A DNA stretch of 64,000 nt from an uncultured Alphaproteobacteria bacterium (GTDB lineage: Bacteria; Pseudomonadota; Alphaproteobacteria; Rhizobiales; Hyphomicrobiaceae): NCBI GenBank assembly GCA_963740475.1, contig CAVUEM010000012.1:23615-87614 (forward strand), read 5' to 3'. The position numbers were made by a program, and so were the translations under genes. Shown piece after piece: positions 57,575 to 64,000 of this stretch. Position 1 is the first letter of the stretch, and each line of letters starts with the position of its first letter. Under the pieces are notes generated by a model, which worked only from the letters and a program-made list of their open reading frames with translations, had not been told where the DNA came from and did not search any database.

Positions 57575-59824
57575 TCAGAACGCGGGACCGAAGCGGTTCG
57601 AGCGCGGGAAGCCCTTCGGTGCAAGGCGTCCCGACTGGGCGCGGACGCCAATCCAGTCGCCGAGCTCGCCCCAGGGCAGTGTGAAGAGCCGCCCCGCCGA
57701 ATCGAGCCACGTCAGCCCGTCCGCTTTACGGAAGATACGCGCGTCCTCGAGCCCGCCGTCCTTGAAGCGCTGCATGATCACGCCCCTGCCGCGGCCCATC
57801 TCGGGGAGCTCGTCCAAGGCAAATACGAGCATCTTCCGGTTCTCGCCGATTGAGGCGACATGATCGCCGTCGACGGGGACGCAGAGACGCGCCTCCTCGG
57901 GCGGCGTGACGTTGAGCACCTGCTTCCCCTTGCGGGTCGACGCCACGATCTCGTCCTCGGGCACGATGAAGCCGTAGCCCGCCGTCGAGGCGACGAGGAG
58001 GCGGCGCCCCGGCACGTAGACGAAGCACGCGACGAAGTCGTTGTTCTCCTCGAGATCGACCATGAGGCGCACCGGCTCGCCGTGGCCGCGCCCGCCGGGA
58101 AGCTGGCTCGCCTCGAGGGTGAAGAAGCGGCCGTTGGTCGCGAATAGGATGAGCTTGTCGGTGGTCTGCGCGCGGATCGCGTGCTTGAGACTATCGCCCT
58201 GCTTGAAGTCGAGCTTCGAGACGTCGTCCTGGTGGCCGCGCAGCGCCCGGATCCAGCCCTTTTCCGACAGGATGACGGTAATCGGCTCGCGCTCGATCAG
58301 CACCTGGTCGAGGTCGGCTTCGACCGCAGGCGCGTCGGCAAACGAGCTGCGCCGCGCCCCGAGCTCGGTCTTCTTCGAATAGCGGTCGCGGACCGCCCGC
58401 ACCTCGTCGGCAATGCGCACCCACTGCAGCTCGTCCGACTTCAGGAGCTGCTTTATTTCGCGACGCTCCTTGGACAGCCGGTCGTGCTCGGCGCGGATCT
58501 CGACCTCCTCGAGCTTGGACAATGATTTGAGCCGGAGATTGAGGATCGCGTCGGCCTGCACTTCGGTGAGCTTGAACTTGGCGATCAGCTTCGCCTTGGG
58601 GTCGTCCTCGTGGCGGACGATGCGGATCACCTCGTCGAGATTGAGGTAGGCGATGAGATAGCCGTCGAGCACCTCGAGCCGGTGCTCGATCTTCCTCAAG
58701 CGGTACTGGGAGCGGCGCACGAGCACGTCGACGCGATGCTCGAGCCACTGGCGCAATACGTCGCGCAACGAGAGCACGTTCGGGATCTGCCCCGCCGAAA
58801 GGACGTTCATATTGAGGCCGAAGCGCACCTCGAGCTCGGTCAGGCGATAGAGGCTCTCCATCAGCAGCACGGGATCGACCGCGCGGCTCTTGGGCTCGAG
58901 CACGAGGCGGATCTCCTCCGCGCTCTCGTCGCGCACGTCCGCGAGCAGCGGCACCTTCTTTTCCGTGAGTAATTCCGCGATGCGCTCGACCAGCTTCGCC
59001 TTCTGCACCTGATAGGGAATCTCGGTGACGACAATCTGCCAGGTGCCGCGGCCCGCCTCCTCCTTCTCCCACTTGGCGCGCAGACGGAACCCGCCGCGCC
59101 CCGTCTTGTAGGCCTCGAGGATGTCGGCCCGCGGCTCGACGATCACGCCCCCGGTCGGGAAGTCCGGCCCCGGGATCATCTCGACCAGCTTCTCGATGGT
59201 CGCGTTCGGGTGCTTGATCAGATGGAGCAGCGCGTTCGCCAGCTCCTCGACGTTGTGGGGGGGAATGTTGGTCGCCATGCCGACCGCGATCCCCGACGAC
59301 CCGTTGGCGAGGAGGTTCGGGAACGCCGCCGGCAGCACGATCGGCTCGCTGTTGGTCGCGTCGTAGGTCGGGCGGAAATCGACCGTCTCCTCGTCGATGC
59401 CGTCGAGGAGGGCGCCGGCGACGTCCGTGAGCCGGCTTTCGGTGTAGCGCATGGCGGCGGCGTTATCGCCGTCGATGTTGCCGAAGTTGCCCTGGCCGTC
59501 GACGAGAGGATAGCGAACGGCGAAACTCTGCGCGAGGCGCACGAGCGCGTCGTAGATCGCCTGGTCGCCGTGGGGGTGAAAGTTGCCCATCACCTCGCCG
59601 ACGATCTTGGCGCATTTCTTGTAGCCGGCCTCGGGGTCGAGCTTCAATTCGCGCATGGCGTAGAGGATGCGCCGGTGCACGGGCTTCAACCCATCGCGCA
59701 CATCGGGGAGCGCGCGGTGCATGATGGTCGAGAGCGCGTAGGCGAGGTAGCGCTCCTCGAGCGCGTCCTTCAAGTTCACGGGCTCGATCGGGCCGGGGCC
59801 CGGCAGAATCGGTTTCTGGCTCAT
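57575..59824 (-). CDS. parC: DNA topoisomerase IV subunit A
   Basis: [52 protein letters not shown] (catalytic Tyr), and a short CTD without a GyrA box. Confidence 0.97.
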
Positions 59825-59856
59825 GGGGATGGGCTAGCGCGGAAGGCGGCGCCGAA

Positions 59857-59877
59857 CAAGTCCGGGTTGTGGATGCA
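59857..59877. repeat. Direct repeat R1 (CAAGTCCGGGTTGTGGATGCA) in the parC upstream region
   Basis: 20/21 identical to 62778-62798. The 16-nt core also occurs at 60448-60463 with one mismatch. Confidence 0.85.
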
Positions 59878-59945
59878 CAGGCAGCTACCGAGCCAGGCAC
59901 ACGCGTGGTAGAAGATTACGAAATCTGAAGCTTTCGCTTGAAACC

Positions 59946-60194
59946 ATGCTGATCGAGCTCAAACCACGGATCGAAGCCCTGCTCAAGGCGCAGGTGGCGG
60001 CCGGGCATTACGCCTCGATCGAGGACGCCCTTACGGCCGCCGTGCTCGGTGCATCTCCGAGCGATGAAAAGCTCGGCGATCTCAGCTGGGCGCGATCGCA
60101 ACTCGACGAAGCCGACGCGGCGATAGCCGCAGGGCGAACGCACACCGAGGAAGAGACCTTCGCGGACCTCGAGCGCCGTCTGGGCAAACTTTGA
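59946..60194 (+). CDS. ParD-like type II antitoxin
   Basis: 82 aa, LKAQVAAGHYASIEDAL RHH-like segment, acidic C-terminus, 3 bp upstream of the toxin gene. Confidence 0.75.
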   Translation: MLIELKPRIEALLKAQVAAGHYASIEDALTAAVLGASPSDEKLGDLSWARSQLDEADAAIAAGRTHTEEETFADLERRLGKL

Positions 60195-60197
60195 GCG

Positions 60198-60447
60198 ATG
60201 GTCTCGGTCCGTTACGCGGCTCCCGCCAAGAACGACCTTGTAGAGATCGCGGACTACCTGGAACGAGAGGCTGGCGCGCGAGTCGCCAGGACCGTGCTGC
60301 AGCGCATTCGCCGCCAGGTTCGCACGCTCGAACGCGACGCCTATCGCTACAGGGAGCGACCCGAGCTCGGAGCGGGCCGCCGCGCCATCTTGATCGGCCC
60401 CTGGATTGCTTTTTACCGCATTGAGGGCGACACGGTCCGAGCGCGTC
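60198..60447 (+). pseudogene. RelE/ParE-family toxin, 3'-truncated (ORF reads through to 60710)
   Basis: VRYAAPAKNDLVEIADYL, YRERPELG and WIAFYRIEGDTV motifs. The expected final strand and (V)LHG..D tail are absent, and the sequence runs into repeat R2. Confidence 0.7.
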
Positions 60448-60463
60448 CCGGGTTGTGGATTCA
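60448..60463. repeat. Direct repeat R2 (CCGGGTTGTGGATTCA)
   Basis: 15/16 identical to the R1/R3 core. Embedded in the hairpin GCGTCCCGG...CCGGGGACGC. Confidence 0.75.
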
Positions 60464-60588
60464 CACCGGGGACGCCGCGGGTCTCGATCCGCTCCGTTTA
60501 CCCTCGCCCCGCTCCCCGCGAGGTTTGCGTTGCCAGGATGTCCTTGGCGTCGTTTATTGTCCGTGTTCACTCAAAAGGCCCAAGCTCG

Positions 60589-61500
60589 ATGGTCCTGCGT
60601 CATGTCGCAATTCGGCTCCTCCTCACGGCGATCCTCTTCTCGTTGTCGGTCGAGGTGCAGATGGCGCGTGCGGCCGAGGAGGCGCCGACCGCCCCAGCCC
60701 CGGCACCTGACGTGGCAGCTTTCAACAGCGCGAAGGCGCTCGGCACCGTGGAGGCCTGGAATGCCTTCCTCGCCAGCTACCCGACCGGCTTTTACGCCGA
60801 CTTGGCGCGCGCCTATCTGAGAACGCTGAAGGACCGGCCGACCGCTGCGACGCCGGCTGCCCCGGTCACCTACATCGCCCAGGAGCTCTCGTGCACGGAG
60901 CGGAGCAAGGTGCGCTCGCTCAACTCCGACGCTCCGACGAAGGTGACCTTCGTCAACGCTTCGCAAAGCTACCGCTCCATCCAGTGGATCGACTTCGAGG
61001 GCAAGCTCAAGGACTACGGCACGCTGAGCCCGGGCGACCAAATAACGCTCGACACGTACGTCACGCACCCCTGGCTCATCGGCACCCGGGCGAAGGAATG
61101 TCTGCATATCTTCATGCCCGACGCTGGGCCGGCGACCGTCGAACTCGCCCGGCTCGCGGACGCTGAGGAGGAGAGCCGGCCCGCGACGAAAGAGAAGCAG
61201 CCCGAAGAGCCGGCGCAGAAGAAGAGCACGCTCGTCTGCGCCAAGAACTACAAGCTTCGCAATGGAGAGTGCGTGCTCGTCCAGAACTGCGGAGCGAACG
61301 CCACGCGCAGCCCCGAGGGCGATTGCTACTGCAACAAGAATTACATGATGAGCAACGGCAAGTGCATCTGGAAGCAGGACAAGAAAGGCTTCGAGGTCGC
61401 CCCGTGGAAGAAGCAGGGCTGCTCGACGTGGCAGAAGCAGTGCAGCCAGGGAAGCAAAAAGGCCTGCGCGAAGTACGAGACAACCTGCCAGGTGAATTGA
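60589..61500 (+). CDS. Secreted modular protein: helical YPxG module + VHL beta-like domain + Cys-rich C-terminus
   Basis: Signal peptide, AWNAFLASYPTGFYADLAR, RSLNS..P..VTFVN.S...WIDFEG..Y.TL.PG..TY.THPW, and ten Cys in the C-terminal ~90 aa. Confidence 0.8.
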   Translation: MVLRHVAIRLLLTAILFSLSVEVQMARAAEEAPTAPAPAPDVAAFNSAKALGTVEAWNAFLASYPTGFYADLARAYLRTLKDRPTAATPAAPVTYIAQELSCTERSKVRSLNSDAPTKVTFVNASQSYRSIQWIDFEGKLKDYGTLSPGDQITLDTYVTHPWLIGTRAKECLHIFMPDAGPATVELARLADAEEESRPATKEKQPEEPAQKKSTLVCAKNYKLRNGECVLVQNCGANATRSPEGDCYCNKNYMMSNGKCIWKQDKKGFEVAPWKKQGCSTWQKQCSQGSKKACAKYETTCQVN

Positions 61501-61505
61501 CGTAG

Positions 61506-62486
61506 TCAGAGCGGCCGCGAGCTCGCGGGCGTCTCGGTGATGGCGCGCCTGATCGAGGCGAGAGGCGCTTGCGCATCGAACGTCACGCCATGGTCGTCCT
61601 TGGAGACACCCAGATCCCGCCAGAGCGCGTCGAGGTCGGGTGCAAAAGGCGCATCGCGCATTTTCTCGTAGAGGCCGGCCAGCACGGCTTCCCCCGTTGC
61701 ATTGTCGGCCACGGCGAGGCTGCGCTCGATCGACCAGTCCTGCTCGTTGGTGCCGCCTGAGGCGAGGATGGCGCGCAGCCCCTGCTGCAAGCCGACCCGG
61801 TTGCCCGTTTGCTTGCGGATCTCGACATCGGCGAGGAGACAGAAGATGGCGCCGCCCCAATACGTACGCCCCCACGTCGGCGTGTTGTCGAGCCCGCGGT
61901 CGCCGGCTTGGGGCAAGCCTTGCGGCATGTCGCGCACGAAGCTGCTCCAGATTTTCTCCTCCGTAAGGTCGCCCGCCTGAACGCGCGCGATGGACTCGAC
62001 ATAGACGGCGAGCCCTTCCGCCAGCCAGAGATGCGAGCGCGCCAAGTCCGGGAGCGCCAAGTGCACCATCTCGTGCACCGCCATCCAGTCTCGCACGAGA
62101 TCGCCCTCGGTCGTCTCGCGGCCGACCAGGAGACGGATCGCGGCGCCGCGATAGCCGAACGCTTGGCCCCCCTGCACGCCTCGCCCCGGAACCGGAACGA
62201 CGAGGAGCCTCGCCGATCGCACGGGGAACTCCCCGTAGTAGACGGAGACGGCTTTCGCCGATCGCTCGAGCCAGCTCAAAATGGATTGGCGCGGGAGAGC
62301 GAACTCGCCGGGAGCAAACCCGACGTTGAGCACGCCGCCCCCGACCGTGACCGGCGTGGTCGCGAGCTTGTCGAACGCGTCGTAGGGCATGCGCTCGCCC
62401 CTGAACGAGGGCGTGGCGGACGCCGGGCACGAGAGAGACGTCGCAAGGAGCAATGCCGACAAAAAAAACTGAGCGAATCTGACCAT
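61506..62486 (-). CDS. Secreted gluzincin-type (M1/M61-like) metallopeptidase
   Basis: Signal peptide, HEMVH zinc motif, downstream WLAEGLAVY third ligand, and RTYWGGA motif. Confidence 0.8.
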   Translation of the reverse strand: MVRFAQFFLSALLLATSLSCPASATPSFRGERMPYDAFDKLATTPVTVGGGVLNVGFAPGEFALPRQSILSWLERSAKAVSVYYGEFPVRSARLLVVPVPGRGVQGGQAFGYRGAAIRLLVGRETTEGDLVRDWMAVHEMVHLALPDLARSHLWLAEGLAVYVESIARVQAGDLTEEKIWSSFVRDMPQGLPQAGDRGLDNTPTWGRTYWGGAIFCLLADVEIRKQTGNRVGLQQGLRAILASGGTNEQDWSIERSLAVADNATGEAVLAGLYEKMRDAPFAPDLDALWRDLGVSKDDHGVTFDAQAPLASIRRAITETPASSRPL

Positions 62487-62556
62487 CTGGCCGAGCCTCC
62501 GGTTGGCACAAAGCACTGAGATGGTGTCTGACCGACGCCGAGTTAAGGGTTGTCGG

Positions 62557-62798
62557 GCGCATGGGGATCGAGAGCGCGATGGCGGGGGTGCGCGCGCAAA
62601 ACCTCGGTATGCTGAAGTCGAGCCAACCGCATCGGCGCGGCCATGTAGGCCGGCGGGGGTGGGGCTGGCCCAGGTGCGCTGCTCGAGCGCGTGCTTGCCT
62701 TCGCGCGATCGATCGGGCGGAGCAGCAGAACCGCCCGCTGGCTCATCGGGTTGGGCTAGGACGGGCGGGGCCCCGGGCAAGCCCGGGTTGTGGATGCA
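62557..62798 (-). pseudogene. Decayed duplicate of the parC promoter region and first ~37 codons
   Basis: 62677-62798 aligns with 59751-59877 (about 95/127 by hand) and 62557-62593 with 59717-59753 (28/37). Residual peptides MSQ, PID, KHALEQR and ALS..M correspond to MSQ, PIE, KDALEER and ALSTIM. Confidence 0.8.
62778..62798. repeat. Direct repeat R3 (CAAGCCCGGGTTGTGGATGCA)
   Basis: 20/21 identical to R1. GC content drops shortly after it. Confidence 0.85.
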
Positions 62799-62887
62799 TT
62801 CCCAAACCGGGCACGTCCCGCTATGCAGTTGTCGCAAATACGGATAAATCCAACTGCGATAAACCCCCAATCCTTTAAGGGCGTTTC

Positions 62888-64000
62888 ATGGCCAATTCTT
62901 ATAAAATGCGTATCTCCCGCCTAACAGTGGATAAGTTGGGAGTTAGATTATATGACAAAGTCTCGGCTGTAATTGCTGAGCTCGTATCTAATAGCTACGA
63001 TGCGGACGCTACAAACGTCTATATAGAAGCTCCTCTTGGCGAGTACCTGGCCAATAAGACTGGTGGAAAAATCCATGATAGGGACCTCGCGATTCATGTT
63101 GTTGATAACGGCATAGGGATGACCCCAGAGGAGGTCAATGACTTCTATCTGCGCGTCGGCGCGGAACGCCGCACCGAGACAAAGAGAGGTCGTGGTGATC
63201 TATCCCCAAAGTTTAGACGACGCGTGATGGGGAGAAAGGGCGTGGGAAAGCTTGCACCATTTGGGATTTGTCAGACCATCGAGGTGCTATCATCGGGCGG
63301 CGAACCGATCACTCGCAAGCGACGAGATGGCTCTAAGGAAAAGGGATACCTCACAGCCCACATAATCCTCGACCGCGCGAAGATACTCCAAGATACGGAT
63401 TTCGACTATAAACCCACGCTCGGTTCGCTAGATGACAGCCTACAAAAAACGGCGGGCACCCGCATCACTCTTCGCGGTTTTTCATATAGAAAAGTTCCGG
63501 ATGCTAGCACCTTCGCCCGGCAATTGGCTCAAAGGTTCGGCCTTTCCTCCGCAAATTGGCGAATTCGCGCTGCGGGACACCGCCAAAACGCTCCACGATT
63601 TCGAGTATGAAACTCTCGTGGGTGCTCTAAGTATTCCTCTTATTCCGGAAACAAAATTGGAATTCGTGGGCCCCGTCGGCCCTAATTTGGTTTGTGCTAC
63701 AGCTCAGGGGTTCTCTGCTAAAAGCTTCGATGGCACGTTGATAGCGGATCTTGAGGCAGGATTTTTTCACGAGAATTCGTTCTATCCAATAACAGGATGG
63801 ATGGGTTATTCCAAGGAGCCGTTAAAAGACGACCTGATGGCCGGCATTCGAGTTTATTGTCGAGGGAAAATCGCCGCCCAAACAATGCTTTTCAATAAGG
63901 GGGCAGGCTTTCATGGCGAGCACAGTATTCGATCGTATCTCGTCGGGGAGGTGCATGCCGACTGGCTCGACGCGGACGAAGATTTGATTCTCACTGATAG
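62888..64000 (+). CDS. GHKL (MutL/MORC-like) ATPase, partial, runs off the window (apparent +1 frameshift ~63566)
   Basis: AELVSNSYDADA, VVDNGIGM, GRKGVGKLAPF and GTRITL motifs. The +1 frame stays open to the window end (GIRVYCRGK, YLVGEVHADWLD). Visibly lower GC with A/T-ending codons. Confidence 0.85.

Follow-up and report, generated by a model that had tools for sequence, protein, structure and literature searches.

A hotspot on the 5′ side of parC in an uncultured alphaproteobacterium carries stacked, displaced copies of the parC start and promoter

Introduction

How does a dead copy of the promoter and first codons of an essential gene come to lie, in direct orientation, on the far side of unrelated genes that separate it from the working copy? 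The question is raised by parC, the gene for topoisomerase IV subunit A, in a stretch of 64,000 nt (the window) of contig CAVUEM010000012.1 from the genome of an uncultured alphaproteobacterium of the family Hyphomicrobiaceae (assembly GCA_963740475.1, a 4.68-Mb draft in 55 contigs, labelled G000 here). A preliminary description of the window, made from its letters alone, had noticed the duplication and proposed that a family of integrative elements targets the 5′ end of parC, rebuilds its promoter and N terminus, and leaves successive arrivals stacked there. The duplication, the rebuilding, and the stacking were borne out by the comparisons reported here, whereas the element family was not: no integrase gene was found at the site, which therefore looks like a product of parC-anchored recombination and not like the target of a mobile element.

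The comparison covered 26 genomes of the genus, the relatives being mostly metagenome-assembled genomes, some of them with low completeness. Six occupied parC loci were compared, namely that of this genome and those of G023, G015, G005, G016, and G021. A scan of metagenomes with a promoter-plus-motif pattern added three short contigs from close relatives, two of which carry dead copies of the parC start (stubs); open reading frames (ORFs) were read in two of the three (L047 and L048).

Results

The displaced parC start

The working parC gene is an intact ORF on the minus strand (57575–59824; 749 amino acids) with 83–96% protein identity to its relatives. The live copy of the repeat (59716–59879, minus strand) comprises parC codons 1–36, the start codon, and 55 nt of upstream sequence, including an 18-nt end motif. 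The dead copy, on the same strand, is in two pieces. Piece 1 (62556–62593) corresponds to parC codons from about 36 to 24, and piece 2 (62672–62800) consists of about 25 decayed, frame-broken codons, a start codon (CAT on the plus strand, 62744–62746), and the promoter with a third copy of the end motif, 55 nt of upstream sequence being aligned. When 59650–59900 was locally aligned with 62500–62830, positions 59745–59878 paired with 62672–62798 at about 76% identity with several small gaps, in agreement with the match of about 75% between 62677–62798 and 59751–59877 noticed earlier. The alignment scored 103, compared with a mean of 21.3 (standard deviation 2.8; maximum 33) for 500 dinucleotide-preserving shuffles. 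Piece 1, which had been described as a match of 62557–62593 to the ALSTIM-coding region at 59717–59753, was likewise confirmed: 29 of 38 positions agreed with 59716–59753, and none of 300 Markov-resampled control sequences reached 29 (mean 21.2, standard deviation 1.2, maximum 28). The two pieces are separated by an insert of about 79 nt (62594–62671), flanked, as had been described, by the 7-nt repeat GGTGCGC at 62587 and 62673.

The arrangement is very unlikely to be an assembly error, because an independent Logan contig from SRR19175045 matched 59735–63058 at 99.88% identity with all parts in identical order. Furthermore, the locus of G015 contains an orthologous piece 1 of the stub, about 80% identical, together with a gene for a HExxH protein that is also found here, so that the stub is older than the split between these two species. 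In G015, the same split in the stub holds about 190 nt, including the start of an antitoxin-like gene that we call the MTDLMEKAL gene. The live copy is the nearer of the two to orthologous parC, with 83–92% identity to the orthologues, whereas the dead copy was 75–79% identical to every live copy. The possibility that the dead copy is a closer relative of some particular orthologue was rejected, as it was alike in its identity to all of them.

The hotspot across relatives

The empty site is seen in 13 species of the genus, in which parC and a gene for a CAP-domain protein are divergent neighbours with a gap of 118–344 bp; in G003, the gap is 872 bp. In the six occupied species, the gap holds 2.7–9.3 kb of mostly differing cargo, which supports the proposal that the 5′ side of parC is a hotspot. 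All six belong to one well-supported recO+era clade of eight species, the other two being G003 and G018, both with a second type of parC promoter described below (native type).

The cargo includes a parDE pair in G000 and G016, the HExxH gene in G000 and G015, a DUF433 protein and an XRE-type antitoxin-like gene in G016, a HEPN protein with an ORC/CDC6-like ATPase in G023, a DUF4145 protein in G015, an aldehyde dehydrogenase and cytochromes c in G005 and G021, and an MmeI-like enzyme in contig L048. The cassettes are 0.5–2.5 kb long and patchily shared; the parDE pair of this window is 85% identical to that of G016, yet it occupies a different slot, and at the parC locus the HExxH gene is shared only with G015. 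The MTDLMEKAL gene (75 amino acids in L047, where it lies at 527–754; no Pfam hit) was found in G021 (L018, about 1330) and L047, in both of which it adjoins the live motif, and as a fragment in G015 (L015, about 2380–2570), and it behaves like another travelling cassette.

Extra copies of the parC start were always in direct orientation (G016, G023, L047, and L048), and the proposed stacking of arrivals recurred: three repeat ends are present in this window, three in G023 (listed as one stub plus two extra end motifs), and three parC starts in G016, where the two extra ones flank the parDE pair. In L047, a stub lies 520 bp from the live copy, and L048 has one stub. In G023, the live parC promoter and the stub are 700 bp apart (L014 1327–2026), and this interval is filled with palindromic repeats resembling repetitive extragenic palindromes (CTCTCCCCGCTCTTGCGGGGAGAGGG...). 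The outer end of the stubs is fixed, whereas the inner start varies, giving lengths from about 30 to about 240 nt: about 30 nt for 60440–60465 in this window, about 48 nt for the third copy in G023, 85–100 nt in G023 and L047, and 125–240 nt for the stub of this window, with the G016 stubs beginning at codon 25–30.

Replacement of the parC promoter and start

Two types of parC promoter were distinguished. The core type, common to the six occupied species (with a variant in G021), has a putative −35-like CTTG and a −10-like GCTARCC that ends 7 nt before the ATG, without a Shine-Dalgarno sequence, as judged from conservation; the native type of 14 other species has the same spacing and a different sequence. 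The core type also includes the 18-nt motif, immediately upstream of the −35-like CTTG; in the live promoter of the window, the −10-like element reads GCTAGCC. All 20 species lacked a Shine-Dalgarno sequence and had the CTTG at a fixed distance of 36 nt. With GCTAGCC (GTAACCA in other species) ending 6–7 nt before the ATG (window 59825–59861), parC is apparently leaderless. A scan for E. coli-type promoters gave 0 sites and was uninformative.

The outermost stub of G016 (L017 3025–3189) scored 83.9 bits on the native-type profile and 61.3 bits on the core-type profile, and it runs on into native-type upstream DNA, whereas the live copy of G016 is of the core type. Therefore, the old start was displaced and the live start is a replacement. 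The dead copy in this window (piece 2) scored 54 bits on the core-type profile and 10 bits on the native-type profile (nhmmer), so that it represents an earlier replacement that was displaced in its turn; native-type stubs were not found in the window (nhmmer, E > 0.01). These results support the view that the working promoter and start of parC have been replaced, and the suggestion that promoter and N terminus are rebuilt on arrival finds its evidence in G016, whose outermost stub has kept the ancestral promoter type together with ancestral upstream DNA.

Replacement was also apparent within the coding sequence. In trees of recO+era and of parC nt 421–1150, G021 grouped with G005 (Shimodaira-Hasegawa-like approximate likelihood ratio test [SH-aLRT] support of 100 and 95, respectively), whereas in the tree of parC nt 1–420 it grouped with G000, G015, and G023 (SH-aLRT 99). 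The approximately unbiased (AU) test on the 5′ part of parC rejected the grouping of G021 with G005 (P = 0.023, for a group named after the tree had been seen). Past the motif, G000 and G021 have a further 14 nt in common. The conflicting placement supports a putative tract of homologous exchange within parC.

The 18-nt end motif

The last 18 nt of the repeat, CCGGGTTGTGGATGCACA as read on the plus strand at 59862–59879 (copy 1), occur three times in the window (starting at 59862, 60448, and 62783) and nowhere else in the 4.68-Mb assembly. Copy 2, CCGGGTTGTGGATTCACA (60448–60465), ends the shortest stub, a piece of about 26–30 nt on the plus strand (60440–60465), and copy 3 (62783–62800) is the outer end of piece 2 of the dead copy. 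The motif was found at these positions and at three places in G023; it is missing between the VHL and HExxH genes of this window and from stubs 2 and 3 of G016.

No free or plasmid-borne copy of a 16-nt form of the motif was found outside parC loci in the 26 genomes of the genus. Other genera of the order gave eleven matches, all except a few of them inside an oxidoreductase gene: the 16-mer CCGGGTTGTGGATGCA is exact in most of the loci L033–L044, within an apparently conserved gene for a FAD/NAD oxidoreductase, where its complement encodes CIHNP. These matches caution that a short motif that looks “unique” may be a coding convergence. A role of the motif as a phage-type attachment site (attP) elsewhere was rejected, because the matches in other genera are CIHNP coding sequence and the 35 matches in viral contigs extend over 19–21 nt only. 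A dif/Xer site was likewise considered and dropped on inspection, the motif being unlike the conserved XerD arm.

As read from the sequence, the motif (TGTGGATGCACA) is an imperfect palindrome. It can be loosely aligned with a motif upstream of native-type promoters, CAAGTTGCAGCAACACA, with the form in G021 being intermediate, and the sharp outer boundary of the repeat may therefore be the edge of promoter constraint. Most likely, the 18-nt motif is the outermost conserved part of the parC promoter; if so, this is why the similarity always stops at it.

Search for recombinases

Six-frame searches for tyrosine (PF00589) and serine (PF00239) recombinases gave many matches across the six genomes and none at the six parC loci (in this genome, C12 83–91 kb); elsewhere in G000, there were 17 PF00589 and 8 PF00239 matches. 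Scanned cargo ORFs had no Pfam match to recombinase families, and there was no integrase among the ORFs read in L047 and L048. Beyond the end of the window, where an integrase might have been expected under the element proposal, none was found from the GHKL ATPase gene that crosses position 64000 through to a RelA/SpoT-family gene. The islands share no common backbone, and our search of the literature for parC as an attachment (att) site returned nothing relevant. Together with the variable length of the repeat, the missing recombinase and backbone in the six loci speak against a family of parC-targeting integrative elements.

Genes between and beyond the two copies

The toxin-antitoxin (TA) module, the VHL-domain gene, and the peptidase gene that had been described between the two copies were found in that order, although the toxin is truncated and the “peptidase” is a HExxH protein without a Pfam hit. 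The first gene (59946–60194, plus strand) is an intact ORF for an 82-amino-acid protein without a Pfam hit, named a ParD-like antitoxin by its position before ParE; it shares 88% protein and 85% DNA identity with the G016 copy, which is located between two parC stubs. The ParE toxin gene that follows (60198–60440, plus strand; PF05016, E = 7e−13) covers profile positions 1–76 of 89, the last ~13 being replaced by read-through into end-motif copy 2. Its homology to parE of G016 stops at 60436, where the G016 gene goes on (...FVQRILHSARDIKLGLFDE, then stop). A complete ParE domain after a small antitoxin gene, as a type II ParDE system has, is thus not present here. The G016 parE gene (L017 2727–2968) was itself matched in two overlapping frames around codons 22–24; hence, both known copies of this ParE (G000 and G016) are damaged, and both parD genes are intact. 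The 586-bp parDE unit of the window is flanked by motif copies that form direct repeats identical at 17 of 18 positions.

The next gene (60538–61500, plus strand) encodes a secreted protein with a VHL beta domain (PF01847, E = 5e−11) and a Cys-rich tail; an identical arrangement was seen in two Logan runs, and the gene is missing from the otherwise matching locus of G015. The HExxH protein is encoded on the minus strand (61506–62486), like parC, and immediately downstream of the dead promoter. Its gene shows 86% DNA identity to that of G015, where it begins 8 nt after the live end motif. In 26 other genomes, none of the homologues of the HExxH gene adjoins parC.

The low GC content that had been noted right after the dead copy was confirmed (0.49–0.54 over about 62800–64000). 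It belongs to a gene for a GHKL/HATPase_c_3 ATPase (PF13589, E = 7e−19) on the plus strand, which runs from 62888 to the window end at 64000 and on to about 64418 (L001 888–2418) in two overlapping frames (62888–63610 and 63432 onward). As read from these frames, the gene looks frameshifted and 3′-truncated, and this low-GC, MORC-like gene is probably a dead defence gene. In relatives, the same slot holds other low-GC defence-like genes, namely the HEPN and ORC/CDC6-like ATPase genes in G023 and the DUF4145 gene in G015.

Beyond 64000, the GHKL gene is followed, in order, by filler DNA, a ClpX-zinc-finger gene, the CAP-domain gene, recO, a small gene, era, acpS, and a spoT-like gene of the RelA/SpoT family. 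The filler, of about 850 bp to 1 kb (L001 2247–3101, equivalent to window positions 64247–65101), has no convincing ORF in G000; it is conserved at 81–84% in G023 and G015 and partly, at 73–75%, in G005 and G021. In G023 and G015, the filler region has an ORF of 73–101 amino acids (MQNFTNEDLTAMRRAYD...).

Discussion

Proposed sequential displacement anchored on parC

We tentatively favour the explanation that the hotspot was built by sequential displacement, through homologous recombination anchored in parC combined with illegitimate recombination. Linear DNA from a related strain would enter the cell with the 5′ portion of parC, the parC promoter, and any DNA upstream of that promoter. Homologous recombination at one end would take place within the highly conserved parC gene, which would serve as the anchor, and the other end would join illegitimately inside the 5′ region or promoter of the recipient's parC. 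The cell would keep a working parC, now with the start and promoter of the donor, and the recipient's old start and promoter would end up farther out as a dead stub, on the other side of the new cargo. With each further event, cargo and stubs would accumulate in a stack whose most recent members adjoin parC, and later deletions and insertions would erode both. The linear-DNA route, the illegitimate joints, and the order of these events are what we infer from the footprints left at the locus.

Several footprints are consistent with this scheme. A putative tract of homologous exchange lies in the anchor beside new DNA, as the conflicting placement of G021 indicates, and stubs of arbitrary length are retained behind new DNA and stacked. 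The fixed outer end with variable starts fits random illegitimate joints and not a constant att repeat. The truncated ParE and motif copy 2 can be explained by a single joint, since the parE homology ends at 60436 and the last 26–30 nt of a parC promoter follow.

Homology-facilitated illegitimate recombination at a conserved anchor has been put forward as the origin of the arrays of effector and immunity genes of type VI secretion systems (T6SS) and of the orphan C-terminal ends of Rhs and contact-dependent inhibition genes (Kirchberger et al. 2017, PMC5361080; de Vries and Wackernagel 2002 and Meier and Wackernagel 2003, as cited in PMC5361080). The parC locus resembles T6SS and Rhs arrays in that part of a conserved gene serves as a homologous anchor and new DNA is placed beside it with no integrase; in both, the former end survives farther out as a stub, and the newest unit lies next to the anchor. 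It differs in that the anchor is an essential housekeeping gene and the displaced piece is a 5′ end with its promoter, not a 3′ toxin tip. Furthermore, the cargo at the parC locus is unrelated to the anchor gene (TA pairs, defence-like genes, a peptidase, and a VHL-domain protein).

A number of points weigh against sequential displacement. It leaves unexplained how the cargo first came to adjoin the parC promoter in the donor. The cargo begins 8 nt from the motif in G015 and 43–90 nt from it at window copies 1 and 3 and in G016, G021, and L047, and the 17/18-identical direct repeats around the parDE cassette resemble an att duplication. As for the exchange within parC, the group in the AU test was chosen post hoc, and the reciprocal test on nt 421–1150 was non-significant (P = 0.28). 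At the ParE joint (60436–60445), compared with the G016 parE gene and the live promoter, the parents are too diverged for microhomology to be called. A gene transfer agent as the delivery route for the DNA received no support, since GTA_TIM was not matched, and ComEC, which is present in the genome, is not diagnostic of the entry route. Finally, homology-facilitated illegitimate recombination is rare in experiments (PMC5361080).

Alternative explanations

The unexplained origin of the cargo, its closeness to the motif, and the 17/18-identical flanks make a recombinase acting in trans a serious rival, although we consider it unlikely. Under this explanation, the locus would be an integrase-less cassette array, similar to integrons or to cis-mobilizable elements (CIMEs), loaded by a site-specific recombinase encoded elsewhere, with the motif as the attachment site and one copy added per insertion. 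The motif marks five junctions in the window and G023, and the remainder of the 26 genomes lacks it; its imperfect palindrome would suit such a role, and in this window, as in G023 and L048, a motif copy is immediately followed by low-GC, defence-like cargo. CIMEs, which accrete in tandem at fda in Streptococcus thermophilus, and integron arrays need a known integrase, that of an integrative and conjugative element or IntI, and defined sites. Like them, the parC locus has tandem, integrase-less units, some of them separated by copies of a short repeat; unlike them, it showed neither a recombinase nor a partner site. A cognate recombinase in cis, as in integrons, is missing from all six loci, and the 26 genomes contain no second motif site that could be a candidate attP or a free cassette, the viral-contig matches being 19–21-nt chance similarities and those in other genera lying in the CIHNP coding motif. 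In addition, no motif lies beyond the far end of the VHL gene, the parDE homology begins 27 nt past the motif and not at it, the varying lengths of parC promoter and codons attached to motif copies are unexplained, and the motif may be a mere promoter element, given its loose alignment with the native-type motif and the intermediate form in G021. The stronger form of the idea, in which the motif is a true attachment site and an unlinked recombinase loads TA and defence cassettes in tandem, making the locus an integron-like platform at the promoter of an essential gene with the stubs as by-products, seems slightly less probable still.

The explanation closest to the preliminary description is that decayed, self-integrating elements of the SXT/R391 kind crossed over in the first ~37 codons of parC and supplied a new start, their integrase modules having since been lost. 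SXT/R391 elements, on which Hochhut and Waldor reportedly worked in 1999, integrate into the 5′ end of prfC. As with them, DNA at the parC locus has entered an essential gene at its 5′ end, bringing along a promoter and N-terminal codons, and the old ones remain at the far end; in G016, incoming DNA has indeed replaced the live promoter and 5′ codons and displaced the old ones, the repeats are direct and stacked, and the very conserved ALSTIM-coding stretch, where the longest stubs begin, would be a plausible target. What SXT has and the parC locus lacks are its own tyrosine integrase, a constant 17-bp att core, and a length of about 100 kb with a conserved backbone. Neither an integrase nor a fragment of one was found in the six loci or among the ORFs of L047 and L048, the islands have no backbone in common, and instead of direct att repeats of constant length, the locus has repeats of which only the outer end is fixed. 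Moreover, the incongruent parC tract reaches to about nt 400, well past the 110 coding nt of the repeat, and therefore requires homologous recombination and not an arm supplied by an element. As no report of such elements was found in the literature either, we regard this explanation as improbable.

Quite improbable, too, is a Campbell-type single crossover, in which a circle carrying a 5′ fragment of parC and cargo integrates homologously and so duplicates the fragment on both sides. Such an event needs no integrase and gives direct repeats, and the fixed outer end would be explained if all circles derived from the same locus; however, the two copies would at first be equally long, the repeats are now only about 75% identical and as short as 30 nt, too poor a substrate for RecA, and no circles or plasmids with the motif were found in the 26 genomes. 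Last, although the genome is a 55-contig draft, we consider it practically impossible that the duplication is an assembly artefact or a chance similarity, because the alignment scores lie far above those of shuffles, the independent contig is 99.88% identical over both copies, an orthologous stub is present in G015, and copies at 75% identity would not mislead an assembler.

Implications

Sequential displacement and hotspots flanked by core genes are known principles, applied here to the 5′ end and promoter of an essential gene. Oliveira, Touchon, and Rocha reportedly described, in 2017, hotspots of integration that have core genes as neighbours and turn over through homologous recombination, many of them without integrases. 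Like such ordinary hotspots, the parC locus has a variable stretch rich in defence genes that is enclosed by core genes (parC at one end; the CAP-domain gene, recO, and era at the other), but ordinary hotspots leave no repeated stubs of the start and promoter of a flanking gene. By its cargo (TA pairs, an MmeI-like enzyme, HEPN and ORC/CDC6-like ATPase proteins, a GHKL ATPase, and DUF4145), the site is suggested to act as a small defence island.

The locus offers a natural footprint, spread over several species, of foreign genes entering a chromosome without the machinery of mobile elements, with an essential, conserved gene as the homologous handle and with the promoter and first codons of parC itself swapped as cargo enters. 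The stacked stubs record the order of acquisition. If sequential displacement anchored on parC is the true explanation, essential genes would be preferred landing pads in addition to passive borders of hotspots, and their regulatory regions would be replaceable by horizontal transfer.

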